In this document: positions 21,194 through 54,508 of the stretch, in pieces
Layout of the letters: every line of letters starts with the position of its first letter
Numbering within the stretch: position 1 is the first letter of the stretch
Source: Escherichia phage vB_EcoP_SU7
DNA length: 64,000 bases
Reading direction: 5' to 3' (one strand)
Sequence record: NC_070980.1
The notes under the pieces: generated by a model
What the model was told of the DNA's origin: nothing
The model's database searches: none
Seen by the model: only the letters and a program-made list of their open reading frames with translations
Position numbers and translations under genes: made by a program

Positions 21194-21456
21194 TGTATTC
21201 CTCTCTCCTTTAGAGCTTTAAGCAAACCGTTGTGGTTAGCGGCACAGGTTGTATAAGTGTCCTGATACCACTCGAGTGTTGTTGCAAGTGCTACTCCCTG
21301 TCCACTCTGAAGTAAAGGGAGGTCTACATCACATTCAGCTTTTAGGTTTGTTGGTAAGGGCATTAGCTGCCTGCTGTTGTCGCTCGTTGAACAAGCCATC
21401 AAACTAGAAGCGAGAAAAATCACCAAACAACTCTTTTGCTTTTTCTTTGTAAGCAT
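21190..21456 (-). CDS. lipoprotein, candidate outer-membrane spanin
   Basis: Signal peptide with lipobox LMAC; short mature part with Pro and Cys; lies downstream of the candidate inner-membrane spanin. Confidence 0.4.
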   Translation of the reverse strand: MLTKKKQKSCLVIFLASSLMACSTSDNSRQLMPLPTNLKAECDVDLPLLQSGQGVALATTLEWYQDTYTTCAANHNGLLKALKERGIQ

Positions 21457-21790
21457 TTTCTGCACCCTCTTGAGTGCTGTGATAACCAAGCCAAATTACT
21501 TTGTTTTGATATCCGATGCGAGCACTCCATTTGTTAATATCCGACCTGTACCCTACACCTTTTATTCCAGTTAAAGAGTTCTTTTGAACTATTTTGTTGG
21601 CATTATTAAGGACAGGTGTTGCTCTTCTTAGATTGCTCCAAGAATTATTAGATTTGTCTAAATCTTTATGGTCTATTTGAAAATCAGGAATCTCTCCAGT
21701 TTTGATATACCAAGCAATTCTATGAGCTTTGTACTGTTTATATTGATAGGTAATCACTGTATAGCCATCTGTGGCTTTACAACCTGCCAC
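21404..21790 (-). CDS. HNH homing endonuclease with AP2-like DNA-binding domain
   Basis: IDHKDLDKSNNSWSNLR (HNH) and GIKGVGYRSDINKWSARIGY…GYHSTQEGAENAY (AP2-like). Confidence 0.6.
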   Translation of the reverse strand: MAGCKATDGYTVITYQYKQYKAHRIAWYIKTGEIPDFQIDHKDLDKSNNSWSNLRRATPVLNNANKIVQKNSLTGIKGVGYRSDINKWSARIGYQNKVIWLGYHSTQEGAENAYKEKAKELFGDFSRF

Positions 21791-26524: not shown

Positions 26525-26676
26525 TAGTGAGTATGATTCCAGTTTAATCCAATCTTACAATCTGATGCAAGAGGACATTCCATCTTGAGGTATTCCCCTG
26601 CTTTACGAACACATTCTTCAGTGAGGGTACGAAGTTTGTTAACATCATCACGATGTACAGTGAACTGACCTTCATC
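26524..26676 (-). CDS. DNA polymerase (family A), exon 2 (C-terminal 50 codons)
   Basis: Encodes DEGQFTVHRDD…KIGLNWNHTH, matching the extreme C-terminus of T7-type Pol A (HDE…G.NW..H). Confidence 0.7.
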   Translation of the reverse strand, partial: DEGQFTVHRDDVNKLRTLTEECVRKAGEYLKMECPLASDCKIGLNWNHTH

Positions 26677-27283
26677 CATTCAGTTATTCCCAAATTACTT
26701 CGGGTGTCGGACTATATCATAACAGCATAGCTAATTTGCTGTTGTTGGCGCTTCGAGGGTTTCCCTGTTAACCCCCTACTCCCTTAGGATAGTCTCTACA
26801 CTTTCCACTTCCGAATCCATCTACAACCGATTCCGAAGCTCACACCAAACTTCTCTGCAAGATGTACACCAGAGCATTCTGTTTCTAGCCAATAAAGCCT
26901 TGCAGCTTCTTGTCTATCTCCATTTCTTCCAGTGTTTGATTCTATTGCATGTTCTGAACCTTCAAGCATTTCTAAGTGCTCAAGATTGGAACAAGCCCTA
27001 TTCTTGCATTTGTGATTTATTTCATAACCATCAGGAATAGAACCAAAAGATTCTTCCCAAACATATCTATGATACATGACCCATTTGCCATCTATTACTT
27101 TTCTGAAATAACCATCTTTGTTAAGTTTGTGTGAGATAGGGATGATACACCCTGTTTCGGTTGTTTCCAAAACAAGAGTTTTCTTAGCCATATCATCTCC
27201 TAATAGCTTAGCTCGGTATTGCCCCCAACTTAATGGTAGGGTTTCACCGAGTTCACCAACTTTTACATGCACAATGAAAGTTT
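26677..27283 (-). mobile_element. group I self-splicing intron with HNH homing endonuclease ORF, inserted in DNA polymerase motif C
   Basis: P1: exon end CAUGCAU pairs with intron GUGCAUG (U.G at splice site); R-like AGAGACUA (26790-26797) and S-like GAUAUAGUCC (26709-26718) form P7; P9 hairpin with GUAA loop; terminal G at 26677; splicing restores …VIDMH|DEGQ…. Confidence 0.7.
26796..27191 (-). CDS. intron-encoded HNH endonuclease
   Basis: YEINHKCKNRACSNLEHLE HNH motif; ATG at 27191 preceded by AGGAG (track start 27272 is GTG inside P1). Confidence 0.65.
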   Translation of the reverse strand: MAKKTLVLETTETGCIIPISHKLNKDGYFRKVIDGKWVMYHRYVWEESFGSIPDGYEINHKCKNRACSNLEHLEMLEGSEHAIESNTGRNGDRQEAARLYWLETECSGVHLAEKFGVSFGIGCRWIRKWKV

Positions 27284-28978
27284 ATGCATGTCAATAACCT
27301 TCGCACAACGAACACCATCCCGCTCAATCCATTTATTGAGGAATAGCATTGCATACTTCATAACAATCGCCCCAGCGCTCTGTAAGAGTGTATTTAAGGC
27401 TTTATGGACCATAACCTTTCCAGTTGCATCTCTTCTCATTGTAATACGACGTCCATCCACACCGTAGATATATCCACTTTGCGCTTTCTCTGTCATACGT
27501 TCAATAAGGATTGCAATACAAGGGTTCTCTGCTAAGAATCTTGCTCTCATGATAGCCCCTTCGTCAGAGCCACCACCTACAATACTTCCTAACTTAGCGT
27601 CACCTGCCCCATAGTTAAAGGCATAGATAAACGTTTTAGCATTATCACGAGTAGGAAGGCCAGCAAGTTTTTGGTTATGTGAGTGAATATCTCCTTCTAA
27701 AAGAATATCTCTATACATAACAGCAGAAGCTAGACCACGTTCAGCTTCTCGTTTCTTAGCCGGGTTGTTTTCTCGCTCTGCTTCAGCGAGCATCTCACGA
27801 CATTCTTTAATAAGGTAGTGAGCTAGCATCCTCAGCTCAAGACCAGAGCCATCGTAACCTAAGAAGATTTCACGACCAGCAGGAACATAGAACTTATAGG
27901 CACCTACAGGTTTGTCTTTCTTGCCCGGTTTTCCCACTTCGTAGATAATGTTAGTACCCTTTCGTACGTAACACCCATCAGGGATATGGTTGGTAATGAT
28001 GAAAGGATGGTTATGACTATCGTCTGAGGAATAGTCAGATTGAAAAAGACTGCGGCACTCGTGACCAAACAAACCGCGAGAAGGAATATTAACAACAATG
28101 CGATGTTTAAAACGAAATGTCGGAGTAGCGCAGCTATTAGCTTCGGCGGACAACTTACCATCTTTACGTTCCTTGTCGATAAGCCCGCTAATCAAACCTA
28201 GCCTGTGAGCCGCTACAACGCGTCTCTTAAGCAAACTTCCTACACCCCCTAGCTCACCCCCAAGCCCCTCTTCAAGAGTCTCCTCAAGGTTTGTAGGGGC
28301 TGTGGGCCACTTGTTTGATGTAGCCAAAGCTTTTTTGATTTCATCAAAGGTTACAGGTTTCTTCCTATTCGGATTAAGACCTAAACCACTGACGTAGGCT
28401 TTCATGTAGTTGACAGTGTGATAACGGAAATGTTTATCCAAAAATCTTCGGATATCAGCATCTATCATCTCCGCTGTCTGTTTCTCTTTAGCATTACCTC
28501 GAATCCAAGCAGAATACCATGCAGAGTATGTACCATACTTCTTCATAGCTCTACGGATTTCAAATGTATTCCAAGGTTTCTTAGAATAATTCCACTCTGG
28601 AGGTATGAAGCCTTCGTCCATCAAGGCTTCTTTGATACGTGCATCTTTCGATGGGTCGAAGTCTACATACTCAACGCAAGTAAACGCCCCACCGATATCT
28701 TCTCTTTTAAGACCAACTCTGTCACAATAGAGCTGAGGCCACTTCTGTAAAGCACCTGACTTCTTAAAAGGTTTCGAATAAGTTGAACCATCCACCCGCA
28801 TTTTGGGGAGGAGAGGAATCAGTTCTTTATCAATATTGACAATAATCTCTTTGAGAAGGTGAACAAACCACCGAGCGTTTCTTCTGTTGAAGTTGACTCC
28901 ATGCTTCGCTTGTTTTGAGATTATATCAGCGACTGTCATCTCCGTTATGAAAGGTAACTTATCAGGGTTATCCATCAC
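27284..28978 (-). CDS. DNA polymerase (family A, T7-like), exon 1, polymerase domain
   Basis: Motif A GYDGSGLELRMLAH; motif B RDNAKTFIYAFNYGAGDAKLG; …LNTLLQSAGA…; ORF stops six codons past the splice point. Confidence 0.85.
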
Positions 28979-29915: not shown

Positions 29916-30233
29916 TCAACTTGAGCTTAAAGCTCCTTTGCGACCGCCTGCTGATTTTCCAGCACGATCTCCACTTTTGCCGCCGTTCGAGCGATTTCGA
30001 GAGACTGATTCAACACGTAAGTTACTTGACGCATTAGAACCTCCCGACTTGATTGATCGTTTGTGTCCAACATCTTTACCTCGGACAGCAGCTTTTCCAT
30101 CGCGCTTTTCAACGATGCGACGTGCACGGTGGCGCTGAGCATCTCCGCTCTTGCTCCCAATTCCCGTTTCACCGCGCTTGATCGCAGTCCTTCTTTCTTG
30201 AGCATAGTCTCTTTTTCCTACATGATCTGCCAT
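29916..30233 (-). CDS. highly basic low-complexity protein
   Basis: 105 aa, Arg/Lys/Gly/Ser-rich; codon choice fits this frame better than two overlapping alternatives. Confidence 0.4.
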   Translation of the reverse strand: MADHVGKRDYAQERRTAIKRGETGIGSKSGDAQRHRARRIVEKRDGKAAVRGKDVGHKRSIKSGGSNASSNLRVESVSRNRSNGGKSGDRAGKSAGGRKGALSSS

Positions 30234-30562
30234 TAGATTTCTCCTGATTCTCTTTGGTTAAAGGTGTGGATGGCGTGGCAATTAGCACACAATATCCTGC
30301 ACTTCCTCATCTCTTCTTTTATTTGAGATAAAGATCTGGTGTGCCCTTTGGAGAGTTCGAATGACTTAGTTAATGGATTTAAATGATCAAACTGAAGAGC
30401 AGATGCGTGGCCTTTAAAACCACATTCAGAGCACCCGTAGAATGTTTTAACTCTACGAATAAAAGCTAGTTGCCTAAACCTTCTTCTCTCATTGTCTGCT
30501 TTTCTCTTATCTCTATTTCCTGGGTCGGCCCATCTACACGAGTCATTGCAAAACCTCTGCAT
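30233..30562 (-). CDS. HNH endonuclease
   Basis: CSECGFKGHASALQFDHLNP…CANCHAIH. Confidence 0.55.
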   Translation of the reverse strand: MQRFCNDSCRWADPGNRDKRKADNERRRFRQLAFIRRVKTFYGCSECGFKGHASALQFDHLNPLTKSFELSKGHTRSLSQIKEEMRKCRILCANCHAIHTFNQRESGEI

Positions 30563-30795: not shown

Positions 30796-31536
30796 TCATT
30801 GAGACCCCTTCTCCATTGCTTTAACAATCGCCTTACAGAAACCAGAACGAACAATGTCATCTGATTCACCATCTACAATCTCAGCGAACTCATACAGATC
30901 ATGTTCATCAATAAAGTTAGTAGCCCAAGTAAGACCACTCTCACGACCACGCATATCATGCTGGTTAGTATCACCCATGCAGAACAGCTGAGAGGTTTCT
31001 CCCAATCGGGTCATGATTGAGAAGGCTTCATCCTTAGTTGTGTTCTGGAACTCATCTACGATAACAATAGCATCATTGAAAGAACGACCACGGAGATATT
31101 CCAGAGGTACGAACTCAATGTTACTGTTACCGAGCTGGCATTCATAGAACCCCTTACCATATCGCTGAGTAATAACATCAATGATGGGCATCAGGTAAGG
31201 TTCAAACTTCTCACGCATTCCTCCCGGAAGTAACCCAAGAGAGTTGCCCATGCCAACTGAAGGTCGACTCAGAATGATCTTCTGAATCTTACCGCTCTTC
31301 AGTGCATCAATAACTGTGGAAGTGATTACAAAGGTCTTACCACAGCCCGCAGGAGCGTCTGTGAACACAACTTGTTTAGTCTTAATAGCATTGAGTAGCT
31401 CAGACTGAAACTGGTTCTGAGGGACTACAGGCTTTGCTAAAACCACCTCTTCATACTCTCGCTTACCCTTATGAGTAACAAGTGCTTCCCGACGAAGGTC
31501 TTTCCGTGATTCTTTCCGTGATTGACGACGACTCAT
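30796..31536 (-). CDS. phoH: PhoH-like ATPase
   Basis: Walker A APAGCGKT; LGLLPGGMREKFEPYLMPIIDV; DEFQNTT. Confidence 0.75.
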   Translation of the reverse strand: MSRRQSRKESRKDLRREALVTHKGKREYEEVVLAKPVVPQNQFQSELLNAIKTKQVVFTDAPAGCGKTFVITSTVIDALKSGKIQKIILSRPSVGMGNSLGLLPGGMREKFEPYLMPIIDVITQRYGKGFYECQLGNSNIEFVPLEYLRGRSFNDAIVIVDEFQNTTKDEAFSIMTRLGETSQLFCMGDTNQHDMRGRESGLTWATNFIDEHDLYEFAEIVDGESDDIVRSGFCKAIVKAMEKGSQ

Positions 31537-31718
31537 TTACGCTCTCCAATTTCTTCGTAATGACACTCAGTAGTTAAGCAATCTTTACAGATTGCTGTAT
31601 AAACCCTGACGTTAGTAAATCGTTTGTTCTTCCCTTTGGTTGGAGAGCCTTTAGCAAGCTCTCTGATAACCTTGTTACTTAAATGAAGGTTTGTTCCTTC
31701 ACATCTAGAGCACTTCAT
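31533..31718 (-). CDS. small zinc-ribbon protein
   Basis: CSRCEG…CKDCLTTEC cysteine pairs. Confidence 0.4.
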   Translation of the reverse strand: MKCSRCEGTNLHLSNKVIRELAKGSPTKGKNKRFTNVRVYTAICKDCLTTECHYEEIGERK

Positions 31719-32034
31719 GGTTCATGTCTTTATGAATCCTGTAAACAGCTGTCGCCATACAAGCAACAGCCTCGTTGTGTGGGAGATGCATTCCTGTAGA
31801 ACCATCCCAATCTTTGAACTCAGCGTCAAAGACTCCGGTAGGCTCTGGATACAGAGCTTGCAGCTCCACTAGATCATTAGCAACTTGTTGCCATTTATCA
31901 TCAGACCAGATAGGGTCATCCAACCAGTAATACAAATAGGAATGGATGATCAATTGCCTTCTGTGCCGATTTATTACTTCAGCGGGACTTATCTCACTTC
32001 CATTTGAAGTCCTAAATGTATTACTGTCAATCAT
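31705..32034 (-). CDS. stand-alone protein resembling the N-terminal Ia domain of NAD-dependent DNA ligase
   Basis: RQLIIHSYLYYWLDDPIWSDDKWQQVANDLVELQALYPE resembles LigA domain Ia (YY..D.P.ISD..YD.L…L..L..P). Confidence 0.4.
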   Translation of the reverse strand: MIDSNTFRTSNGSEISPAEVINRHRRQLIIHSYLYYWLDDPIWSDDKWQQVANDLVELQALYPEPTGVFDAEFKDWDGSTGMHLPHNEAVACMATAVYRIHKDMNHEVL

Positions 32035-32216
32035 TTCACAACCTTAAATTTGAATGTTGTTGGGTGATAATAGTGCAACCTGTTAATGGTGTGCTTTGTT
32101 TCAAGGTATAACCTGCAAGAGTGACACATGACATGAGTCAAACCGGTTACAGGATTAGGTTTAAAGTTGGCGACAGTCTTCTCTTTCTTACAGAAGCTAC
32201 AGACTTTCTTTTCCAT
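32031..32216 (-). CDS. small zinc-binding protein
   Basis: CSFCKK…MCHSC; internal ATG chosen; overlaps the next ORF. Confidence 0.35.
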   Translation of the reverse strand: MEKKVCSFCKKEKTVANFKPNPVTGLTHVMCHSCRLYLETKHTINRLHYYHPTTFKFKVVK

Positions 32217-32430
32217 CTTTTCTCCAGTGGTCAACGAATTGCTGAAACACTTTATGGTCGAAGGTGAAACCGCGAGCAATCCCACACTCTACGAAAGTAG
32301 AAGGCATATAATCTACATCACCTTCAGATGTATGACCATAGATTTGAATAAGCTTCTTAATCTTATCCTTCTCTCTTCGAGGAAGCATTCTAAATGCCTC
32401 CTGAATATCTGTAATATGTTTTATCTTCAT
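32197..32430 (-). CDS. small hypothetical protein
   Basis: 77-aa ORF. Confidence 0.35.
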   Translation of the reverse strand: MKIKHITDIQEAFRMLPRREKDKIKKLIQIYGHTSEGDVDYMPSTFVECGIARGFTFDHKVFQQFVDHWRKDGKESL

Positions 32431-32576
32431 AAGAAATTCCTGCTAATCCTCTGAGTTGTGGGAACAGCAATATTCACATACTCCACAACAAGGGCAGATT
32501 TCTACACTTGGGTCATATGCATCATCAACTGTCATCCCACACTTGGTGCAGAACACGTCATCATCTTCTTCCAATA

Positions 32577-33224
32577 TTAACTCTCCAAAGTTTTCTTCAG
32601 GGCTGCCCACGAGATTGGGTAGAGTTTAGCCATCTCTTCGTCTAGAGATTGGGCAAACACTCGAACTTCATATTGAGCGTGAGATGAGAGTCGCTGACGA
32701 CACAACTCAAACCAGCCATACAAAGAACCAGTCCAGTACCAAGTAGTTATCATACCTTGAGGCAAAACAAATCTAGCCTGTTCCGGAGCAATAAATTTAA
32801 TCAATTCATCATAACTAGCAAGAGATGCTTCATACGCAGAGTTAAACAAAGCCAAAGCTTTTGCCTCCTCTTCCCCTTCAAGAAGCGCTCCAGAACCAGA
32901 GTGTAAATCATCTGGACGAGAGAAAATTTCTTTAGGTATGAAAATATCCACTGCTCCGTCTTTGTATCTACGACTCATCTCATTCCAAGAGAATCCAACT
33001 TGATGTTTTTGTAGCTGTCGTGCGATTGCTATCGGGGCTTCACACCGGAAGCTTGCTTGTGGGTGACGAAAAGGGCTTACATGGCGTTCTCGAGCTAAGA
33101 AGTTAATAAGCCGAGTATCATTTTCTTTCAGCTCCTCCCTTTCTACTCCCATAGTTACACGAGCGGCATTTACCACAGTAAGGTCTGATCCGAAGTTATC
33201 AATTAGTGAAGCTTTGATTGTCAT
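32577..33224 (-). CDS. thyX: flavin-dependent thymidylate synthase (ThyX family), divergent motif
   Basis: Aligns by eye to ThyX across AARV, SPF.H, F..APIA.ARQ, SWNEMSRRY, SHAQ.E, but the canonical RHR is KHQ here. Confidence 0.65.
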   Translation of the reverse strand: MTIKASLIDNFGSDLTVVNAARVTMGVEREELKENDTRLINFLARERHVSPFRHPQASFRCEAPIAIARQLQKHQVGFSWNEMSRRYKDGAVDIFIPKEIFSRPDDLHSGSGALLEGEEEAKALALFNSAYEASLASYDELIKFIAPEQARFVLPQGMITTWYWTGSLYGWFELCRQRLSSHAQYEVRVFAQSLDEEMAKLYPISWAALKKTLES

Positions 33225-33690
33225 TTATATAAATCTCCTTGACTTTATTATATTCCCTAGAGGCCTCTTCTACGGTTGAGAAGAGTCCTATATGCTTAGA
33301 TTTAAATACAGCCCGATAAGCAATAGAACCACTTTTCCTTTTATGAACAGTTACTCCAATTACTCCAGTGGATAAGTTATTACTCTGTGCTACCCTATTA
33401 AGACTGTTTCCTGCTTTAGTAGTCCCTCTAAGATTCTCTCTTTTGTTGTTCAACCTGTTGCGGTCCAAGTGGTCTACCTCTTCAGGAAGCGAACCAGTGT
33501 CCCACCAGTAAGCAAGACGGTGAGCGTAATACTTAACACCTTTATAGATGATTCTCAAATACCCATTGGTATTTACAGAACCAGCTATAGATCCTTTGTG
33601 TCCTTTTCCATAAGTTTTAACCCATCGGAAATCTCCAGTCAAAGGGTCGTAATCAAGAGCTTCTTTTATTGATAGGTCAATGTCATTCAT
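33199..33690 (-). CDS. HNH homing endonuclease with AP2-like domain
   Basis: VDHLDRNRLNNKRENLR (HNH) and GVIGVTVHKRKSGSIAYRAVF (AP2-like); directly upstream of thyX. Confidence 0.65.
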   Translation of the reverse strand: MNDIDLSIKEALDYDPLTGDFRWVKTYGKGHKGSIAGSVNTNGYLRIIYKGVKYYAHRLAYWWDTGSLPEEVDHLDRNRLNNKRENLRGTTKAGNSLNRVAQSNNLSTGVIGVTVHKRKSGSIAYRAVFKSKHIGLFSTVEEASREYNKVKEIYINDNQSFTN

Positions 33691-35990: not shown

Positions 35991-36524
35991 TTATACGCCT
36001 TTAGAAGCAACTACACCATTACTACCGTTATAACGACCCTTCACTGCATAGGAATCATCACCAGCGTGAGAGTGTTCAAACATAACCATTTGACCAACAC
36101 GCATCCCAGCACGAACTCGTAAGCTGTGATTGTGGGTAACGTTATGGAACTCAAAGGTTAGCTTACTGCTATTAAACCCTGCATCAGCCCAACCAGCATG
36201 TAAGTGGTTCAAACCACAACGAGCCATAGAGGAGCGAAGTACAAACAGACTTGAGATGTTATCTGGAAGGTTAAACTCTTCCATTGAGTGAGCTAAGAAG
36301 AACTGTCCCGGAGTGATGACAATGCCATCTTCAGGGATTTTCACTTCTTTCCACTTGAGGTTTTCTTTAGCATCAATGTCAACAATACCATCAGCCTGTT
36401 CTTCAACAAGGATAGTATCACCAATACGGATATCCACGCTAGCAGCGTTAACATATTTATGCTCCGCATCTAAAAAGCCATTATCAATAACGCTGTGTAA
36501 TTCTTGAGAACCTAAAAGACTCAT
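35991..36524 (-). CDS. dCTP deaminase / dUTPase-superfamily enzyme
   Basis: NAASVDIRIGD… and C-terminal …GMRVGQMVMFE fit the dCTP deaminase family. Confidence 0.6.
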   Translation of the reverse strand: MSLLGSQELHSVIDNGFLDAEHKYVNAASVDIRIGDTILVEEQADGIVDIDAKENLKWKEVKIPEDGIVITPGQFFLAHSMEEFNLPDNISSLFVLRSSMARCGLNHLHAGWADAGFNSSKLTFEFHNVTHNHSLRVRAGMRVGQMVMFEHSHAGDDSYAVKGRYNGSNGVVASKGV

Positions 36525-38008
36525 GAGTTTCTGTTTCCTTGTACAGATGATGCCAAATTATTAATCATATTACGAGCTGTTTCACGAGATAGTGTAACAC
36601 CTGCTAGGTTGTTGTGAAGCTCACCAGATAGCTCACGAGCTGCTGCTCGTAGTTCTGCACCAAGTGCAGTGTCAGAGTGAGCTAGACCATTACGACGACC
36701 AACAGGTCGAGGAGCTTCGTTAGCGTCATTAGCTAATGATGCAAAACCAATATGAGCAGCTTCACGAGCCGCTATAGCTGATACTCGATCTTCTGTAGGG
36801 GTTGGCAAATCACCAACTTCTACACGTTCAATATCACTAGCACGTAGACCCTGAACAACAGAGCTTACTGTTTCCCATGAACGACGAGAACGCTGCAAAT
36901 CATCCATTGACGGAGATGGAATAGGACGAGCAGTTCCTCCTTGGACATGCCATGTACGAGTATCCATTCCAGAAGAGTGTGCACTACCAAAACTACCAGT
37001 GAAAGTATCACGAGGTCTTTCATGAGGTTGTACGTTATACCCTACAACACCCCCTCGAACAGTTCGAGAAGTTTCTTCATTAAAAGCTTGAAGATCTCGT
37101 CTGTTAGTTCCCGGAGTCCAAGGTCGTGTAATTGCTTCAGCACCTATAGTGGTTAATCCACTAGACCATTCTGTCTGTAGGTTAACTTCCTCGTCCAGAT
37201 AACTACGACCCCTTTCCTGAGGAATGTTTAATGTAGTTTCCATCATCTTCAGGGTATAATGACGACGCTGATTCTGATATAAATTTACACCAGCCATAGG
37301 CCCAACTAAATCACTGATCAGATGAACTTCTGGTTCACCAAAAGCTCCCATTGCAAGGTGCATGTACTCAGTAGAACTGCTGTAAACTGCAACTGTTGCT
37401 TCAGGCCACTTTTTGTGGACATACTTCATGTCACGACTTGTCACCACAGGGATATCATTAGTATATGCCATTGCAAACATACCTTCGTTCGACACATACA
37501 TATCATCGAGAGTCATAAACCCTTGACAAATCATAGGGAAGCGACCGCTCAGAGTATCCATATCCAGAGGGAGGTTAATCATCATCTGAATCTTCACTTC
37601 GTCAATCTCCACTTCCAAAATCTCTTGGAAAGTGAAAAGTGCTTCAGCGTAGGTTGTTCCACTGATAGGCTGAACTAGTCGAGATGTAACTTGAAGCCCC
37701 TTACTCTCTGTCCAAGACAAGAAGTTGTCAAGGAACAGTGCAGCATTACTTACGTTAGCAGGGCTGTTTTCCTGACGAGTGTTCCAACGGAATCCTCCTT
37801 GAACTAGGAAGATATCAACATCATTCGGAGTTCGATTTTGGAAGAACGTATCACGGATAGCACCACCTGCAATGACAGGATAGATACCATCAGGGACTAC
37901 GTTATCTCTGATCAGATTGCGAATCAGATCAAGCCCTACGCTGAGGGCTTCTCCTTCTTGAAGGTTTAATTCAGACAATGGAATCTTAATCATTTCTACA
38001 TTTTCCAA
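36521..38008 (-). CDS. nucleotidyltransferase-domain protein (tRNA-NT / poly(A) polymerase-like head) with long C-terminal extension
   Basis: [24 protein letters not shown] matches the GG.[VI]RD…D.D head motif; C-terminal ~250 aa Ala/Arg/Ser-rich. Confidence 0.4.
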
Positions 38009-40363: not shown

Positions 40364-40570
40364 TTAGTAAAACGATCGTATTTCTTCCCACACATCATCT
40401 TGCAAGTTTCTAAAACCCTGCAAGGTTTGCTTTGTTCTGTGAATAAATTCTTCAGAGTGCTTATCAGGTGTGAGCATACTGACAAACTTTTCATAGCGAT
40501 TAATCTTCCACCGCATCTTTAAGTAGTCAGATTCAAGCTTTCTTAACTTCTGCCTGTCAGTTACTGTCAT
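40364..40570 (-). CDS. small hypothetical protein
   Basis: ORF 40364-40666 trimmed to an internal ATG; start uncertain. Confidence 0.3.
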   Translation of the reverse strand: MTVTDRQKLRKLESDYLKMRWKINRYEKFVSMLTPDKHSEEFIHRTKQTLQGFRNLQDDVWEEIRSFY

Positions 40571-40988
40571 CCTTCTCACCTGCCAGATATGCTGTCCAGT
40601 CACCCGATTCAACCAGAACATCTTGTTCTTCGTCGATGTGATAAATCCACGCTTCCACAGTTTCACCGCTGTCCAATAATACTGGAATCAGCGTACGCTT
40701 GTAAAAGGTGTATGGGTTATCATTACCACGATGACCTTCCAGACCGTCATACGGACCTTCCAGACCAGCTTGGGTTGTTTCAAAGACTTCTACACGAACA
40801 GGCTTACCATTGCTGTCATGCTCCAAAGATACACTTGGGAAGTATGCTGTGCAATATTGATACAGGTTACAGTTGTTTACTGTCCACCCTTCACCAATAG
40901 ACACACCACCGGCACGAGCATTGATAGCGTGGTTGTGTTGACCTTTTCTCAAGCTTCCGTAAGTTGCAACTAGTACTTTATCAGACAT
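40557..40988 (-). CDS. gamma-glutamyl cyclotransferase-fold protein (AIG2 / GGACT-like)
   Basis: N-terminal VATYGSLRKGQHNH matches the YG[ST]L[KR]KG..NH motif of AIG2/GGACT enzymes. Confidence 0.6.
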   Translation of the reverse strand: MSDKVLVATYGSLRKGQHNHAINARAGGVSIGEGWTVNNCNLYQYCTAYFPSVSLEHDSNGKPVRVEVFETTQAGLEGPYDGLEGHRGNDNPYTFYKRTLIPVLLDSGETVEAWIYHIDEEQDVLVESGDWTAYLAGEKDDSN

Positions 40989-41054
40989 TATATTACCTTT
41001 TAGTGTTTCAGTTAAATTCGAACTAGCCTCCTCTTTCGAAGAGGCTAAAGCAAA

Positions 41055-41240
41055 TTATTCTACTTCGAAGTGTTTGATCACACCAGTCAGTACATCAGAT
41101 TGGAATGTACCCACTAGCTCTGTACCTCGGAAGAAGTTGACATTTGTTCCAAGTGATTCAAAGCGATCTGCTTGAATGTCCAGAGATTGAATATTTCCTT
41201 CTGCTGACATTGTACGAAACATGATTGTGTATTTATTCAC
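41055..41240 (-). CDS. small hypothetical protein
   Basis: 61-aa ORF. Confidence 0.35.
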   Translation of the reverse strand: MNKYTIMFRTMSAEGNIQSLDIQADRFESLGTNVNFFRGTELVGTFQSDVLTGVIKHFEVE

Positions 41241-41479
41241 AGACTTGTTACTCCCTTATCTGCTTGTGCAATTGCGATGATACGCTCAGCACATTCCATT
41301 GAATATTTATCACCTCGTTTGAGGAAGGTGATGATTGCAGAGAACTGATTACCAATCATTCTCTTATTTGTGATACCGAACTCTTCACAGAGTTGGTTGA
41401 TAGCTTTACGAGAGCCTACAATAAGAGGCTCTTTTTCTTCGGTCATTCCACGGCTGATCAAATCTTCGATAGACAACAT
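41237..41479 (-). CDS. small hypothetical protein
   Basis: 80-aa ORF coupled to neighbours. Confidence 0.4.
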   Translation of the reverse strand: MLSIEDLISRGMTEEKEPLIVGSRKAINQLCEEFGITNKRMIGNQFSAIITFLKRGDKYSMECAERIIAIAQADKGVTSL

Positions 41480-41505
41480 TACAAATTCCTTTTTGTTTAA
41501 TTTAA

Positions 41506-42741
41506 TTACAGAGTTACTGCTACTTCGCTACCTTCAACATTGACAGACTCTAACTTGCGAGGGTTATGAATCTGGACTGGATTGACCGGAACGTTCCAAC
41601 CACTGCGGTAGAAGTTACGACCATCACAGAACAGGATGACATTGGCAGACATTGCATTCGGTTGCAGGTTGTTGTGGACATGACGGATATTTGCAATCCA
41701 GTAGCCACGAGACAAAGTGTAGCCAGTAGGTGCATTACGAATAGTTTGAGTATTCATCTGACCTTCCAGTTGCATTTCTTCAGGAACCACATCAACTGAA
41801 TCAATCGGCTGTGCTACTTGTCCTTCCAGTGCAAAGTTTTCATCATCAGCACTTTCACTGTCAGCAACCAATTCACCGTCCCCGTCTTCAATCGGAGTCT
41901 GGTAAACCACTTTATACTGAGGGGTATAGAGAGGGTTCTGAGCTTTAACAAACTCAAGAATGTTGTGACGATAAGTATCCAGAGTCGTACCAGTCAGTCC
42001 CGGTGCTGTGTTAACTTCCAGTACCCATGCTTCTTGACCTTTGGTGATAATATCAACTGCACCGAAATCCAGACCCATTGATTCAACAGCTTTCACCGCA
42101 TTGATCAGAGAGGCATCATTCGGAGCATCTGTGAAGGAGCTTGAGTAAACCCAGCCAGTGTGGTGATTACGAATATCTTCACGATAGTTAGGGTCTTCGC
42201 GATAACCATTGCGACGAATCTTCTTCTGAACATAGGTGATTACACCTTTGAACACATGGACACGCCATTCACGACGTGGGCCTTGAATACCTTTAGTGTA
42301 CAGCTCAGCCTGATCAACTGTAGTGTTAGGCTCTACAACAACAATACCTGAACCAGAGTGACCAGTCAGCTCGTGACGCTCATACACAATGTTGCCAGCG
42401 TTTGACCACTCCTGAGCAGTCTCTTGAACATCTGTGTATTCCACAGTTTTAACACCTGCTTGGTCCATCACACTGAAAGCACGACGTTTGTTCGCTGCCA
42501 TATGTAAGGCTGCGGTACGGTTAAGGACGGTTGCAGAACCAAAGAATGATTCAGGATAGCGACGGTTCCCGTAGTTAACAACCACATCATCTTCACGAGA
42601 ACGCCAGCGGCTATTCTCTGAAAGAAGCCCCATCACGTTAGCATTGATGCGTTCATCACGGATAGTATCACTGATAGCAGATACCAGAGCGTTAACAGAA
42701 TCAGACGGGCCATACGGAAGAACACGGATACGAGTAGTCAT
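41506..42741 (-). CDS. ATP-grasp ligase
   Basis: AWVLEVNTAPGLTG is the ATP-grasp Mg-ATP E-x-N motif; 411 aa. Confidence 0.65.
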   Translation of the reverse strand: MTTRIRVLPYGPSDSVNALVSAISDTIRDERINANVMGLLSENSRWRSREDDVVVNYGNRRYPESFFGSATVLNRTAALHMAANKRRAFSVMDQAGVKTVEYTDVQETAQEWSNAGNIVYERHELTGHSGSGIVVVEPNTTVDQAELYTKGIQGPRREWRVHVFKGVITYVQKKIRRNGYREDPNYREDIRNHHTGWVYSSSFTDAPNDASLINAVKAVESMGLDFGAVDIITKGQEAWVLEVNTAPGLTGTTLDTYRHNILEFVKAQNPLYTPQYKVVYQTPIEDGDGELVADSESADDENFALEGQVAQPIDSVDVVPEEMQLEGQMNTQTIRNAPTGYTLSRGYWIANIRHVHNNLQPNAMSANVILFCDGRNFYRSGWNVPVNPVQIHNPRKLESVNVEGSEVAVTL

Positions 42742-42743
42742 TT

Positions 42744-42974
42744 TTAGATACCTTTTAGTTTAAGAATTTCGTTACGACAGGATTGAATTTTAGCTTCGAT
42801 TGCCCAATACTCAGCGAACATTTCGTCTTCTTGGGCATCGCTTGGAGAGTCGATTAAGTTAAAAGCAAACGGATACAGCTTTCGCTGCTCCGTTACCAGT
42901 TGTTGAAGTCGGAGTTGTTGATACTCCAGCATTGTCAGGTGAGGCTTAGCTCCCTTGCTTGACATGAGGCTCAA
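42744..42974 (-). CDS. small hypothetical protein
   Basis: 76-aa ORF directly downstream of the ATP-grasp gene. Confidence 0.4.
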   Translation of the reverse strand: MSLMSSKGAKPHLTMLEYQQLRLQQLVTEQRKLYPFAFNLIDSPSDAQEDEMFAEYWAIEAKIQSCRNEILKLKGI

Positions 42975-43179
42975 CTTTAATCCCCTTCATTTTAACATAG
43001 TCAGCCAACACGTTGTTGATAACGGTTGGAAAAGGGATTTCTACTGGAGAATCAACCAGCTTCCCAATACCTTCTTGCATCCACTTCTGAATTGCTCGGA
43101 GGTTATCACATCCTGTGCTTGTCATCGGAATACGGCGGGTAGTTACCACGTTATCCAACATCAGTTTACGAACTTCCAT
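42946..43179 (-). CDS. small hypothetical protein
   Basis: 77-aa ORF. Confidence 0.4.
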   Translation of the reverse strand: MEVRKLMLDNVVTTRRIPMTSTGCDNLRAIQKWMQEGIGKLVDSPVEIPFPTVINNVLADYVKMKGIKVEPHVKQGS

Positions 43180-43190
43180 AACTATACCTC

Positions 43191-45224
43191 TTAGTGTTTA
43201 CCTTTACAGTAATCTGAATTACAGATCACCCTGTTTTCTTTGTTCAGTGAGCAAGTTTCTGCATCACGCCACGGAATTTGTTTATAACAGACTGCACAAA
43301 ACCCAATTGAAGTCCAGAGGGCTTTTGTGAACTCGGCTGTTCGTTGTCCATCATAGCTGACAACTGTTTTTCGGAGAGAGGTTGACTTTTTTGGAAATGT
43401 CTCCGCTTTCTCAGCGGGTACCTCCTTTGGGGAATTCTTTGGACCATAAACAGAGATGGCATAAGTATCACCACCACGTTTTTCCAAATACGAATTAGGA
43501 ACATCTGCAAGTGTAATATCCCCTGAACGTTTTGCTGAGCTAACCATTACGATCATACGGCTAAGCATACGTTCATCAACACGAACAGCTACTTCAGGAC
43601 GACGTGGGTTGGTTGTGTCTACTGCTTTAGTCCAAATATAACCCTCAGATAGAGTAACATTCTTTACTTTATCTTTGATTTCTTTGGAGCAGATATAACA
43701 AACATCTTCACCACGAAGTTTACTCATTTCGTTGTCAAACTCGAAATCAGTCTTGACTTCACCACAGACAGCACATACGCCCAAAGGCACATCTTCTTCA
43801 TCTTCAGAGATTTTAGATAACGCTTCGAAGCATTCTGGATGCCAGTATGCTTGATAAGCAAACACAGCCTTACGAGCATCTTTCCAGTCAATGTGCTTAT
43901 CACAACCACCACAATCACCATGAGAGTGAGATTCCCAGAACTTACGAGTGACTTCTACACCATTTTTAGTGATGAAGGAGTCCTCTGCATCAAAAGGGAT
44001 GTCATCATCAAAATCAGCAGTAGTGCTTTGAGGCTCCTTATCTGTAGCATCAACAAACAGCCCTGAAGTTAGTACGAGGCGAATCATACTGTCCACTTCG
44101 GAGATACAAGCAATCGTCCCGCGATATACTACCTTTGGGTTTTCAAGAGCCTTAAGATATTCATCTTTGGCTACGTTGTGAACATCCCCTTCGACATACT
44201 CTTGGGCTTTATCGTCGTAGATGTAACCAATCATCTTACCACGATCTGTGTTGTTATAAGCATGGAACTCGTGAGGAATAATATCCACACGACCATCACG
44301 ACGATAAGGAAGACCACGATCGGCAGCCAGTTTGTTCTGGTCTTCAATCGCTTTACGACGACGAATGTCTCCGCTTGTCACGCCGGGCTTGTCGTCTTTG
44401 TTTCCGTAAATGTCGCTTGTGCTGCTGCTTGATTTGTTTGTCTGTTGGTTCTGATATAGAGAGGAGTTCGAGTAATAGCCGCCCCAGCGACTCGTTATCG
44501 TAAAAACCGGAAGCTTGTGCTCCACCTCTTGAACCAGAGTCATACGACTGTTAGACACATCAAAGATATACTCAGTTCCCACTTTACATTCGAAGTGGTC
44601 ATTGATACGGTTCTTGTGGGATTTAGAACGCTCTAAAATCCACATAAGCATAGCTTCTTCAGAAGCCCCAAACCAATCTAAACCACAACGGGCTAGGTGG
44701 AAAGGACGCTCATCATTACGGATAATGTGAAGCGTGTTGTCTTTAGCATCATGCCAAATCAAAGTGAATGCACCATCCAGTTTTTGGATAGTCTCTGCTG
44801 CTCCAATGGTATTAATTGAGTGGCAGATGTTTTCACTATCAACTTCGAAACGCTTACTGTCAGGAAGGAGATCTTGATCTAACAGGGTTCCATTATGAAC
44901 CAGAGTAATATCCCCGTGAGTAAATGGGTGAGCATTTCGAGCATTGACAGCCCCACGAGTGGCATGTCGGCTGTGACCAACAATCCACGAAGGAGGAACT
45001 ACGTAGTTCGTAAGCCCTTTGGTAATATTTGTATATTCTGTCTGGAGCATAAAAGCATAAGAAGGAAGAGCTTCTTTATAAGAGAAGACTTGCTTTTCAC
45101 CTTTACGCTGACCAAACACACCAGTTGAGTGCTGTCCACGGAAAACACCAGCATACAGAAGTTGGTTGAAAATATCCAAATCTGTTGAGGTCATGTTGCC
45201 GCCAGCTAATACGATACCACAAAT
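43191..45224 (-). CDS. class II glutamine amidotransferase-like (Ntn hydrolase) protein with C-terminal Cys-rich zinc-binding region
   Basis: In-frame CGIVLAGG sits just 5' of the track ATG and is preceded by AGGTGG plus an ATT codon 8 nt downstream; GVFRGQHSTG; C-terminal CxxC clusters. Confidence 0.5.
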   Translation of the reverse strand: MCGIVLAGGNMTSTDLDIFNQLLYAGVFRGQHSTGVFGQRKGEKQVFSYKEALPSYAFMLQTEYTNITKGLTNYVVPPSWIVGHSRHATRGAVNARNAHPFTHGDITLVHNGTLLDQDLLPDSKRFEVDSENICHSINTIGAAETIQKLDGAFTLIWHDAKDNTLHIIRNDERPFHLARCGLDWFGASEEAMLMWILERSKSHKNRINDHFECKVGTEYIFDVSNSRMTLVQEVEHKLPVFTITSRWGGYYSNSSLYQNQQTNKSSSSTSDIYGNKDDKPGVTSGDIRRRKAIEDQNKLAADRGLPYRRDGRVDIIPHEFHAYNNTDRGKMIGYIYDDKAQEYVEGDVHNVAKDEYLKALENPKVVYRGTIACISEVDSMIRLVLTSGLFVDATDKEPQSTTADFDDDIPFDAEDSFITKNGVEVTRKFWESHSHGDCGGCDKHIDWKDARKAVFAYQAYWHPECFEALSKISEDEEDVPLGVCAVCGEVKTDFEFDNEMSKLRGEDVCYICSKEIKDKVKNVTLSEGYIWTKAVDTTNPRRPEVAVRVDERMLSRMIVMVSSAKRSGDITLADVPNSYLEKRGGDTYAISVYGPKNSPKEVPAEKAETFPKKSTSLRKTVVSYDGQRTAEFTKALWTSIGFCAVCYKQIPWRDAETCSLNKENRVICNSDYCKGKH

Positions 45225-45301
45225 TTTCTAATCCACCTGAAGGGTAAACCCTTTCATCTAATTAACCTTTAAATGCGCCCTTTATCAGAGCGCCCATTGT
45301 G

Positions 45302-46402
45302 TTACAGCAGTCGTTCTAATTGCATTTCCAGATGGTCTGGAATGTAATCAGTGATGTTATTATCACTGCTACCTGATTCACGCATCAGAGCAAACATGTG
45401 ACGAATTTCACGAACCGTTGCGATTCGAGTGCTTTCAATCTGAGGGGTGTAGTAGGTCATGATCTCTTCATAGACAGTGTTGGCATTACCGCGCACATAT
45501 CCCAAGAAACCATAGAAGTCATTCATATCACGTAAGTTGATAAGGACTTCACCATCAGGGCCAGTCTGTTGCACACGAACACGACCAACCAAAGTTACAG
45601 ATTGCTCACGACAGAACAGAATATCACGAGCAAGACGATACCCTTCAGTGAGATCACTGTCTCTTGGAGTATAGTCTAGGGGTAGATGTTGAATCATAGG
45701 AGCGAAGCGCAGCTCATTCAACTTCTCAACATAAGCTTCATTGTCTAAATCTGCATATTCAACAGCCAGTTTCTTGAGAACCAAGAAGCGGTTGACCAGA
45801 TTCAGAAGTTGGCTCTTTTTCCACTTCGGCTCTGAGATACGGAACTCAACAGAACCAAATTGAGATAGAGGCAAAAGATTAAGGGAGGTATATTTATCCC
45901 AGCTATTAACAAGAGAGTGGAAGAAAGCTTCCCCGTCTCGGTTGAACGCTGACGAAGCATTCATAACTTGTGCTTGAACGACAGCAAAAGCTGGACAGAA
46001 GTTGCTACGATAGCGATGGTATCCAGAACATTTGAACATCATCTTTTCATAGAACGTCCATCCAAGAATAACTTTCTTAAGGATATTACTATCAGCGTCA
46101 CGCATATCCATATGAACGTGAGTGGAACAGCGCCAAGTTCCCTCGGCTCCAGAATCCTGTACTGCTTCACTCAGATTGTTAATAGCACGAAGTAATTCTT
46201 CACCGTTGTAAGGTCGTGCACATACTAATTCACAACCATCACGAAGAGAGCCATCTTCAGTACAAACCCACATATCAGCGTCAATGTTAGTTGTACCTTC
46301 GACTTCTAACTCAATACCAACACCACACTGAAAAGCAATACTTGGATGCGGTTCAGATAAGCGAGGGTTACGGTATCCAAAAACTTGTGCTACGGTTGTC
46401 AT
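45302..46402 (-). CDS. glutamine-synthetase-like amidoligase (putative carboxylate-amine ligase)
   Basis: GIELEVEG and STHVHMD metal-binding-type motifs; sits next to GATase II-like and AIG2-like genes. Confidence 0.4.
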   Translation of the reverse strand: MTTVAQVFGYRNPRLSEPHPSIAFQCGVGIELEVEGTTNIDADMWVCTEDGSLRDGCELVCARPYNGEELLRAINNLSEAVQDSGAEGTWRCSTHVHMDMRDADSNILKKVILGWTFYEKMMFKCSGYHRYRSNFCPAFAVVQAQVMNASSAFNRDGEAFFHSLVNSWDKYTSLNLLPLSQFGSVEFRISEPKWKKSQLLNLVNRFLVLKKLAVEYADLDNEAYVEKLNELRFAPMIQHLPLDYTPRDSDLTEGYRLARDILFCREQSVTLVGRVRVQQTGPDGEVLINLRDMNDFYGFLGYVRGNANTVYEEIMTYYTPQIESTRIATVREIRHMFALMRESGSSDNNITDYIPDHLEMQLERLL

Positions 46403-47025
46403 AATGATTCCACCAACTCTACATTATATGATGACAGGTCTGAAGAAATATGCTTGAACTTCTCCAGAAGGTTTAAAGATTGACGACCATTGTCGCCATA
46501 ACCAGCTTCAAGAAGCACGTTTCCAACGTAAGCTCCTTTGTAATAAACTTTTCCATCGACAGGATTGATATAGATGAAACGAGTAACCAACCCTTCAAAC
46601 TCTGGATTAAACAGGTTGTACACCAAATCACCCGGAATCGAACGTCCGAGAGAAGGTGGAGTACCACGAAGTTTATTCCCCATCAATCCTTTAGCTCGCT
46701 GACGAACAGGGTTGATATGGGTCCAGCTCACCATGTTATTACCATGCTGAAGGTATCCTACATCTGGAGACTCCAGAATGAGGCTGTGATCAAACACTGG
46801 GATATTACTAACAATCTGACGCTCAAACTGACCTTCGGAGTTTTTAGTCCAGCGTTCCGCCTCAAACACTAAAGACATTTCAGCGTCGTGTGAGTAGTCG
46901 TCGATATCAAAGTTACCTTGCTGACGAACATCAAGCACATATAGAGGGAGGTTTTTACCATCAGGTGATCGCTGAGCAATCCATGTTCCACAATAATAGT
47001 GTTGAAAATCTCTTAACAAGCTCAC
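46399..47025 (-). CDS. hypothetical protein (cluster member)
   Basis: 208-aa ORF, stop-start overlap with the amidoligase. Confidence 0.5.
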   Translation of the reverse strand: MSLLRDFQHYYCGTWIAQRSPDGKNLPLYVLDVRQQGNFDIDDYSHDAEMSLVFEAERWTKNSEGQFERQIVSNIPVFDHSLILESPDVGYLQHGNNMVSWTHINPVRQRAKGLMGNKLRGTPPSLGRSIPGDLVYNLFNPEFEGLVTRFIYINPVDGKVYYKGAYVGNVLLEAGYGDNGRQSLNLLEKFKHISSDLSSYNVELVESL

Positions 47026-47034
47026 AATATCACC

Positions 47035-47844
47035 TTATACAATCTGGAGTTTAGAGGAGAATTTATCCGCTTCTTTAACATCGTTACTGTTGATGATGTT
47101 GTGAAGCTTTTCAATTGGAAGGCGAGAGTGAAGTGACATCAATACTTCCATATCACAGCCTTGAACAACCTTATCAACTTGCTCATAAACAAACTTGCGG
47201 GTTGACTTCTCGCCAATCCAGAAGTTAGAAAGAGAACGATATTCAATACCGTAATCTTTGTAGCGAATGGCAGAAGCCTTTCCGTATAACTCTTTACGAC
47301 GAGTATCTTTATCCATGATCACAGCTGGCAAGGACAGGAAGTAATCACACAACACACCTAACATCATTTGAGTCTGACGACTAATTTCCAGCGTACCAGT
47401 GACGCCAAGGTGAACATGACCACCAGCAGTACGCAGACCTTTGTCTGTCGCTACTGGAGATGGGTTTTTCTGACCAGTGAAGGCGTTGAAATCAGGAGTA
47501 CAACCAAATACAAAGGCTGACGGATGGAAAGATTCCATCTCTTCTGAAGTGAACACATGAGAGCTAATCCCAAGTGCTGCCTCCATGCCACGTTCATTGA
47601 GAACTTTGTTAGTCAGATCAATACCACGCTGAATGTTATCATTAAACGCTTCAAACCCTTTCTGTGGGTTAATATCGAACTCGGCCAGAACGTTGTCTTC
47701 TTGAAGACGAACATCAGGGGCCAGATCAATTTTGTTGTCTTTAGAGCAGCCCAGCTTACCAGCCACAGAGGTGATAATACCAGAAGCAGTACGAACAAAC
47801 ATTTCCGGATCCGACCCTATTAAGAATTTACGTTTAGTAGTCAT
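47035..47844 (-). CDS. hypothetical protein, possibly a second carboxylate-amine ligase-like enzyme
   Basis: IGSDPEMFV and GGHVHLG motifs; assignment weak. Confidence 0.3.
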   Translation of the reverse strand: MTTKRKFLIGSDPEMFVRTASGIITSVAGKLGCSKDNKIDLAPDVRLQEDNVLAEFDINPQKGFEAFNDNIQRGIDLTNKVLNERGMEAALGISSHVFTSEEMESFHPSAFVFGCTPDFNAFTGQKNPSPVATDKGLRTAGGHVHLGVTGTLEISRQTQMMLGVLCDYFLSLPAVIMDKDTRRKELYGKASAIRYKDYGIEYRSLSNFWIGEKSTRKFVYEQVDKVVQGCDMEVLMSLHSRLPIEKLHNIINSNDVKEADKFSSKLQIV

Positions 47845-48311
47845 GCTTTAGTCCAACCTTTATGAGATAGATAGTTTTTAAATCTGCCACTGTGCACAGC
47901 GCCCATGTGGCCTTGATGTAAGTCGTTGCTTCTACAGAAGTCTTTAAGATTGTATATTGTTACAACCTCGCCATCTGGAGATCTAAACTTCCAAAATCTA
48001 GCATTCCCTTTCACAGCGTTTTCTTCACTGGTCAGAAGTTGGAAATTACTTGGGTGGTTATTAAGTTTATCGCCATCGATGTGATCAACAGTCATACCAT
48101 CCGGAATAGGCCCAATAAACAATTCATACATAAGTCTATGTAATAAAAAGTTCCTTGTTATCTTTTCAGGAGCCTGAACTGTTGTAAACTTAAGATAACC
48201 ATCTTTATCAGGAAACAGTTTCCTCTGTTTCCCTGTTCTTGCATGGAATATACTACCGTCTTCGAACACCAAGAAGGTAGCAACTCCGACTACTAACTCC
48301 CTAAATTCCAT
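47841..48311 (-). CDS. HNH homing endonuclease
   Basis: VDHIDGDKLNNHPSNFQLLTSEENAVKG. Confidence 0.6.
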   Translation of the reverse strand: MEFRELVVGVATFLVFEDGSIFHARTGKQRKLFPDKDGYLKFTTVQAPEKITRNFLLHRLMYELFIGPIPDGMTVDHIDGDKLNNHPSNFQLLTSEENAVKGNARFWKFRSPDGEVVTIYNLKDFCRSNDLHQGHMGAVHSGRFKNYLSHKGWTKA

Positions 48312-54422: not shown

Positions 54423-54498
54423 TTGGTGCACCCTACAGGATTCGAACCTGTAACCAACGACTTAGAAGGTCGCTGCTCTGTCCATTGAGCTAAGGGTG
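54423..54498 (-). tRNA. tRNA-Arg (anticodon UCU)
   Basis: Minus-strand read GCACCCT-TA-GCTC…GAGC-A-GCGAC-CUUCUAA-GUCGU…ACAGG-UUCGAAU-CCUGU-AGGGUGC-A-CCA folds as a canonical cloverleaf with encoded CCA. Confidence 0.85.
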
Positions 54499-54508
54499 CT
54501 GGATTTGT

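Follow-up and report, generated by a model that had tools for sequence, protein, structure and literature searches.

A stand-alone ligase Ia-like (Nlig-Ia) protein of coliphage vB_EcoP_SU7 and its possible role as an NAD+-binding accessory of phage replication

In NAD+-dependent DNA ligases (LigA; NAD+, nicotinamide adenine dinucleotide), the N-terminal domain Ia orients the nicotinamide mononucleotide (NMN) leaving group, with the nicotinamide stacking on a pair of tyrosines (reviewed in PMC7470946). A free-standing version of this domain, Nlig-Ia, was described in phages by Iyer, Burroughs, Anantharaman & Aravind (2022, Viruses 14:1977; PMC9503650). They report solo Nlig-Ia in 81 phages, with ECBP2_0056 as an example and with 80 of the 81 lacking a ligase, describe the ligand-binding residues as conserved, and propose either an NAD+ sensor that reports attack by NADases or a shield for NAD+. 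Here we examine the family member encoded by Escherichia phage vB_EcoP_SU7, in a 64,000-nucleotide stretch of NC_070980.1 (hereafter the window; coordinates count from its first base). The gene lies at 31705..32034 on the minus strand and encodes a 109-residue protein identical (100%) to gp62 (phi32_62, YP_001671807) of phiEco32 (Kuravirus, Gordonclarkvirinae). An earlier note, made from the DNA letters, had singled it out as a solo ligase Ia-like protein; since Iyer et al. had described the family, that observation was already in the literature, and the Nlig-Ia finding is known at the level of sequence analysis. Relative to the part of their account available to us, the present analysis adds replication-gene neighbourhoods, a second conserved motif, tryptophan and glutamine substitutions in the ligand-binding block, and clamp-like terminal tails, the last of which appear to be new. 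A literature search met the name Nlig-Ia in a single paper and found no published NAD+-binding data for the family.

The only above-threshold Pfam match of the window protein is PF22745 ("Nlig-Ia, DNA ligase-like N-terminal NAD+-binding domain"), which it covers from profile position 1 to 90 of 92 with a score of 120 bits (cut-off 27; E 6.8e-35); it also matches PHROG 6466 (E 8e-43). A profile built from 51 family sequences matched mostly NAD+-dependent ligases in the PDB, the best being E. coli LigA (E 2.5e-4), with the alignment confined to LigA residues 2-53. In the reverse direction, residues 4-54 of E. coli LigA matched PF22745 positions 2-52 of 92 (E 2e-11). These matches bear out both the stand-alone Ia-like domain that the earlier note had proposed and its profile similarity to LigA Ia. 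The protein comprises four helices in about 100 residues, helices 1 and 2 being homologous to LigA domain Ia, and in the predicted model its helical Ia fold is superposable on that domain.

Alignment to E. coli LigA places the ligand-binding positions in two segments, H-S-Y-L-Y-Y at the end of helix 1 (codons 31-36; 31927..31944, minus strand) and D-D-K-W-Q at the start of helix 2 (codons 45-49; 31888..31902, minus strand). Five residues of LigA Ia, Y22, H23, D32, Y35 and D36, are reportedly the essential ones, as Sriskanda and Shuman are said to have established in 2002. LigA Y22 corresponds to Y35 of the window protein and H23 to Y36, each kept in 322 of 324 unique homologues, and D32 corresponds to D45 (323 of 324); H31 is likewise kept in 317. 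The remaining two positions are occupied differently: LigA Y35 aligns with W48, at a site that is aromatic in 323 homologues (W in 295, F in 18, Y in 10), and LigA D36 aligns with Q49, at a site that is Q in 262 and D in 40. In the clade of the window protein D-x-x-W-Q is fixed; members from phages of Gram-positive hosts have a LigA-like D-x-x-[YF]-D. Because residues of the stacking and hydrogen-bonding type seen in LigA are retained, we infer that the window protein would bind NAD+ or NMN autonomously.

A second motif, F-K-D-W-D-G-S-T-G-M-H-L-P (codons 73-85; 31780..31818, minus strand), is specific to the family and has no matched counterpart in LigA. It lies outside the part of PF22745 that LigA matches and is as conserved as the first block, with F73 present in all 324 homologues, W or F at position 76 in 321, T or S at position 80 in 321, G81 in 321 and H83 in 270. 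We speculate that the F..W.G.TG.HLP loop and helix 4 may complete a self-sufficient ligand pocket, as the adenylation domain does in LigA. At the opposite end, an N-terminal extension, MIDSNTFRTSNGSEIS (codons 1-16; 31987..32034, minus strand), is found in the alignment only in the Kuravirus-like clade. The model is less confident in this part (mean predicted local distance difference test score, pLDDT, of 70 over residues 1-10) and predicts a small β-hairpin; no clamp-binding motif is recognisable in the extension. Residues 32-67 also gave a sub-threshold Pfam match to Imm41, a polymorphic-toxin immunity protein (E 3e-4; 21 bits, cut-off 26.9), which recurs in a metagenomic homologue (P0010); Imm41 and the Ia fold may be distantly related.

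The protein ends at residue 109, and the adenylation domain, with its motif I lysine, and the OB fold are missing from its Pfam scan; in the same scan every other ligase domain of E. coli LigA was detected. Against the NCBIfam LigA equivalog it scores 15.9 bits, the cut-off being 369. A single-sequence phmmer search of all window ORFs (open reading frames) with E. coli LigA returned no match and missed the Ia-like ORF itself; phmmer was too insensitive and was therefore replaced by Pfam scans of concatenated ORFs. These scans took in all ORFs of at least 100 residues in the early/middle block, which is mostly on the minus strand and separate from the plus-strand structural ORFs. The block encodes polymerase A, a 3'-5' exonuclease, a primase-helicase, a 5'-3' exonuclease, PhoH, ThyX, thioredoxin, dCTP deaminase, a Dps-like protein, several HNH endonucleases and a cluster of amidoligase-type enzymes, and none of its scanned ORFs has a DNA_ligase_aden, ATP-ligase or RNA-ligase domain, in agreement with the statement in the earlier note that no ligase catalytic domains lie nearby. 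By phiEco32 annotation, the plus-strand ORFs of the window encode tail, lysis and ejection proteins, and the phiEco32 genome beyond the window encodes terminase, portal, capsid and fibres. Neither a full ligase nor an Ia-less one, as envisaged in the earlier note, was found among the scanned ORFs of the window, and the only ligase annotation in phiEco32 is that of gp62. In 87 related loci, too, no LigA core turned up within 10 kb.

Strong purifying selection acts on the gene, with ratios of non-synonymous to synonymous substitution rates (dN/dS) of 0.07, 0.07 and 0.13 against three orthologues. Proteins 76-99% identical to that of the window occur in about 90 related coliphage, Shigella-phage and Salmonella-phage records, and in none of the approximately 90 matching Kuravirus-like genomes is the frame interrupted. 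The published example, ECBP2_0056 (locus L014), is an orthologue with 77% identity. Judged from its sequence, the gene product is an Nlig-Ia protein (PF22745) that is whole, functional and free-standing. It is neither a ligase nor a piece of one, does not make up half of a split ligase, and is unable to join DNA, although many records label family members "NAD-dependent DNA ligase" or "DNA ligase". The suggestion that it could be a ligase fragment fails against a family of some 600-1100 clusters of small solo proteins, the dN/dS of 0.07-0.13 of the gene, and its near-invariant motif that LigA lacks.

An exhaustive profile search of 1.84 billion cluster representatives retrieved 1,112 proteins at E ≤ 1e-3, of which 603 also passed E ≤ 1e-10; almost all are solo proteins of 60-190 residues. 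LigA was not retrieved by the family profile at the former threshold (1,112 matches; among the matches listed, 150, lengths range from 61 to 321 residues). Cellular genomes contributed 10 loci among 185,579 bacterial and archaeal species genomes, and at least two of these 10, in Janthinobacterium and Massilia, are apparently prophage copies. Cultured carriers are Kuravirus-like podophages, phages of Arthrobacter, Clostridium, Enterococcus, Rhodococcus, Carnobacterium, Bacillus and Streptococcus, and jumbo phages of Erwinia and Proteus. A few homologues depart from the solo architecture: one metagenomic protein (P0246) has three tandem Nlig-Ia repeats, two others (P0183 and P0204) are fused to a C-terminal region of about 200 residues that has no Pfam match, P0010 ends in a CxxC..CxxC zinc ribbon, and P0171 begins with a cysteine-rich segment. 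Four loci in metagenome-assembled genomes of SAR324 and Deltaproteobacteria (L098-L101) encode solo Ia-like ORFs of 120-140 residues with a LigA-like D-x-x-Y-D and a different C-terminal half (...EASGYSIRxYP...); they may represent a separate solo branch or be prophage-derived.

Relatives of the window protein carry short terminal peptides that resemble clamp-binding motifs. We scored three terminal patterns by sequence in 324 family members, using 1694 neighbouring ORFs as controls, and found at least one in 85 members and in 14 controls, counts that are descriptive only, as the patterns were defined post hoc and the sequences are related. The first, a C-terminal Q-x-[SDGAT]-[LMI]-[FLY] after a Pro/Ala-rich linker, occurs in 29 members and in none of the controls. 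It can be written Q-[MAL]-[SGA]-L-F, sometimes with a second "ALF" preceding it, and is also seen at the ends of the Janthinobacterium and Massilia copies, as QGSLF and QMALF. The pattern matches the consensus pentapeptide of the bacterial β-clamp, QL(S/D)LF; in E. coli the clamp makes contact with ligase and accelerates ligation (PMC9690074). The second, an N-terminal [ST]-L-[DE]-x-F-F-[DE], occurs in 36 members and 3 controls, mostly on T4-like contigs. It resembles the ...ASLDFLFG of T4 gp43 and the ...SLDFLYEAND of gp55, ends that bind the gp45 clamp (PMC2988020). We considered whether this N-terminal motif, seen as SLxSFF, is the same as the clamp-binding end of gp33-like proteins on those contigs, and rejected the identity, the gp33-like end being K-x-x-x-L-P-[LIV]. 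A search for cultured T4-like phages with the N-terminal-motif form yielded none. In the third type, an N-terminal M-(x)-LF is followed by a Lys/Pro-rich linker, as in Gp16 of pneumophage Dp-1 (MQKSLFG and a basic linker), and several proteins have "LF" at both termini. Because the type of motif differs by terminus and clade and matches the type of phage or host, repeated recruitment of the Nlig-Ia domain to sliding clamps would most simply explain these peptides.

The gene also recurs next to replication genes. In Arthrobacter phage DrManhattan it is downstream of DNA polymerase I, with one small overlapping ORF between them. In Dp-1 it is flanked by recA and three clamp-loader genes, the phage dnaN being located upstream at a distance of a few genes, and at a further locus (L081) a dnaN homologue is upstream and a clamp-loader-like gene adjoins it. 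T4-like metagenomic contigs share a conserved array of DUF932, an unassigned gene, SNase, Nlig-Ia, a cell-wall hydrolase, gp33 (the late-transcription coactivator), gp59 and gp32. In the window, the gene is located between thyX/trx and phoH in a minus-strand block that spans primase-helicase to polymerase.

With a polymerase and a primase-helicase of its own and no ligase, the phage must rely on host LigA to seal Okazaki fragments. We propose that the Nlig-Ia protein binds NAD+ or NMN autonomously and serves as an accessory to replication in phages that have to use host LigA, a proposal that we regard as evenly balanced. At the replication fork, such a protein would keep, buffer or hand over NAD+ for ligation by host LigA; alternatively, it could couple replication to the supply of NAD+, for example when host NADase defences drain it. 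The proposal extends, and does not contradict, the published sensor or shield idea.

Several observations weigh against this proposal. NAD+ binding by the family as a whole is read from residue conservation, and two of the five LigA positions are fixed otherwise in the window clade (Y to W and D to Q), which leaves room for a ligand other than NAD+. Host LigA has its Ia domain in cis and thus offers no obvious mechanistic opening for one acting in trans. In yeast two-hybrid data for Dp-1 against its host, orf16 interacted only with RuvB, a prey also bound by another phage protein. As to the clamp, neither end of the window protein carries a clamp-binding-like motif, its Kuravirus-like relatives have no recognisable tail, about three quarters of the family lack one, the motif counts are post hoc, and in T4-like contigs the gp33-like ends (K...LP[LIV]) differ from the Nlig-Ia N-terminal motif. 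Finally, several metagenomic phages carry the gene in a setting of very small unannotated ORFs where replication genes are scarce or missing (the neighbourhoods of P0031 and P0037 consist almost wholly of such ORFs), and these settings fit an accessory or anti-defence role equally well.

The rival that survives best, and which we consider possible though on the doubtful side, is that the protein is an NAD+ sensor or shield against NADase effectors of the host (such as TIR and SIR2) and has no particular tie to the replisome. By binding free NAD+ it would either signal to the phage that NAD+ is running out or keep a protected store of it. This reading was put forward for exactly this family, with ECBP2_0056 as the example (PMC9503650), and it is consistent with the conserved ligand-binding positions, the almost exclusively viral distribution and the small-ORF blocks in which several metagenomic phages carry the gene. 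It leaves unexplained, however, the clade-specific clamp-like tails at different termini and the recurrent placement by polymerase, clamp and clamp-loader genes. Moreover, a sensor should have an output domain or partner, of which none is evident, and a stoichiometric sponge for a millimolar metabolite would require very high expression. The sensor or shield idea overlaps our proposal rather than excluding it.

A more specific mechanism, which we think unlikely, makes the solo Ia domain a reader of the NMN moiety on the sliding clamp. In one version it would be an NAD+ chaperone, delivering NAD+ to host LigA in ligase-less phages under NAD+ depletion; in the other it would recognise the NAD-capped 5' ends of RNA primers, of which the exposed part would be the NMN group that Ia binds. 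In vitro, NADH or flavin adenine dinucleotide (FAD) can serve E. coli primase for primer initiation, with altered primer processing (PMC7367122). In either version the protein would represent a kind of replisome accessory factor not described before.

The earlier note had suggested that the protein might act on host LigA or on NAD metabolism as a decoy or modulator, an idea that overlaps both the published sensor or shield idea (PMC9503650) and the replication-fork role proposed here. Taken strictly, a decoy would dock on the LigA adenylation domain, taking the place of the ligase's own Ia, or compete for the clamp, blocking adenylylation and shutting down host DNA repair and replication. The homology to a domain that closes over the LigA active site lends this some appeal, and the clamp-type motifs of relatives could compete with host clamp clients. 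A phage that has a primase-helicase and a polymerase but no ligase should, however, need LigA activity, which makes a decoy unattractive; the cis Ia of LigA would have a large advantage in local concentration, and near-invariant small-molecule-binding residues are unexpected in a pure protein-protein decoy. We therefore consider the decoy quite improbable.

In a split NAD+-dependent ligase the protein would provide Ia in trans for an Ia-less catalytic subunit that the phage encodes separately; this reading is very improbable and largely refuted. According to Iyer et al., one of the 81 phages has a separate catalytic module (PMC9503650), and in the window a gene annotated as a nucleotidyltransferase, which is gp73-like, lies 4.5 kb away (36521..38008, minus strand). 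We examined its product as a hidden ligase core and rejected it, as it lacks the ligase KxDG motif and instead has a GGAIRD...DVD head motif of the Pol-beta/CCA-adding type. It has no sequence match in Pfam, NCBIfam or the PDB, and the long C-terminal region that follows the head motif has a composition suggestive of disorder. The lack of ligase-type Pfam domains among the scanned early-strand ORFs, of a ligase annotation in phiEco32 other than gp62, and of a LigA core in the 87 related loci also argues against a split ligase. The idea of a decaying, functionless remnant of a complete ligase gene, which the "DNA ligase" label in many records and the presence of the N-terminal domain alone might evoke, is barely conceivable and already refuted by the conservation data, given the low dN/dS, the intact frame in all Kuravirus-like genomes, at least 600 clusters with a motif that LigA lacks, and the tight packing of the gene in an operon with overlapping stop and start codons.

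The immediate neighbours of the gene are two 61-residue CxxC..CxxC zinc-ribbon proteins, both encoded on the minus strand. Upstream is a phiEco32 gp63-like gene (32031..32216; PHROG 15951) whose stop codon overlaps the Nlig-Ia start (ATGA) and whose product has only weak, sub-threshold zinc-ribbon matches in Pfam. Downstream is a gp61-like gene (31533..31718; PHROG 14369) that overlaps the 3' end of the Nlig-Ia gene by 14 nucleotides and the start of phoH by 4 nucleotides. Overlaps with both neighbours place the Nlig-Ia gene within a tightly packed operon, and an Rfam scan found no structured RNA near it. Over a 10-kb stretch of the window the best DNA match has 92% coverage and 89% identity, making the window distinct from phiEco32, and ORFs without a counterpart in phiEco32 occur beside the gene. 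Between thyX and the gp63-like gene, where phiEco32 is empty, are a 77-residue ORF matching PHROG 4452, "anti-restriction nuclease" (32197..32430, minus strand; E 5e-31), and a 55-residue cysteine-rich ORF (32443..32610, minus strand). Conversely, phiEco32 gp37 (NC_010324.1 34833..35273), a macro-domain ("Appr-1-p processing") protein of the NAD+/ADP-ribose network, has no tblastn match in the window, nor does gp35; the solo Nlig-Ia protein is therefore not obligately paired with gp37.

Elsewhere in the window, the DNA polymerase A gene is split (26527..28975, minus strand): the counterpart of phiEco32 gp53 residues 1-564 lies at 28975..27284, that of residues 565-614 at 26676..26527. The insertion, about 607 bp long, includes an ORF for an HNH_3 endonuclease (26796..27272); since Rfam detects no group I intron in it, either the insertion is an unrecognised intron or the gene is genuinely split. 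Further HNH homing-endonuclease-like ORFs are found on the minus strand at 21404..21790 (matching HNH_3 and AP2 in Pfam), 30233..30562, 33199..33690 (HNH_3 only) and 47841..48311; that at 33199..33690 lies between thyX and the thioredoxin gene, a place where phiEco32 has none. A minus-strand cluster of peptide-ligase type (40557..47844) encodes a gamma-glutamyl cyclotransferase-like protein, a RimK-like ATP-grasp protein (weak match), a class-II glutamine amidotransferase, an Amidoligase_2 protein and a "phiEco32-like COOH-NH2 ligase", and we take it to be the known phiEco32 amidoligase system. The window also has a tRNA-Arg gene (anticodon tct; 54424..54499, minus strand), shared with phiEco32, and a 142-residue ORF (51801..52229, minus strand) with a weak, sub-threshold ProQ/FinO-domain match (E 1e-4).

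The naming of these proteins as "NAD-dependent DNA ligase" in dozens of phage records and several papers is wrong, and the present analysis corrects a widespread mis-annotation of a family that is common in phages (at least 600 clusters) and almost absent from cells. Should NAD+ buffering or sensing prove true, the family would belong to the field of NAD+-centred phage-host conflict; should the link to the clamp prove true, the supply of NAD+ would be tied to the sealing of Okazaki fragments, a new type of replisome accessory.

Among known systems, the small phage proteins Tad1 and Tad2, which bind cyclic ADP-ribose signals, and the phage systems NARP1 and NARP2, which rebuild NAD+ enzymatically, offer a functional analogy only, that of a small phage protein which may likewise act in the NAD+/ADP-ribose economy; they are not known to be related to it in sequence or fold. 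T4 gp33 and gp55 and the clamp-tethered ligases, namely T4 ligase with gp45 and E. coli LigA with the β-clamp, are closer to the relatives, which, judging by their termini, appear likewise to join a small functional domain, through a flexible linker, to a short terminal peptide of hydrophobic or acidic character; no tail of this kind is present in the window protein. Human ligase I is also tethered to its clamp, through an N-terminal PCNA-interacting-peptide (PIP) box. LigA domain Ia itself (E. coli residues 1-69; PDB 2owo, 5tt5 and 4glx) has two homologous N-terminal helices and a matching fold. Unlike LigA, the window protein is not attached to adenylation, OB, zinc-finger, HhH and BRCT domains, it adds about 40 residues with F..W.G.TG.HLP and a fourth helix, and in its clade the LigA residues D36 and Y35 are replaced by Q and W. 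The closest system remains the solo Nlig-Ia phage proteins (PF22745, ECBP2_0056), with which the window protein shares its family, its solo architecture, a ligase-less genome and the conserved ligand positions, and from which it differs in nothing essential.

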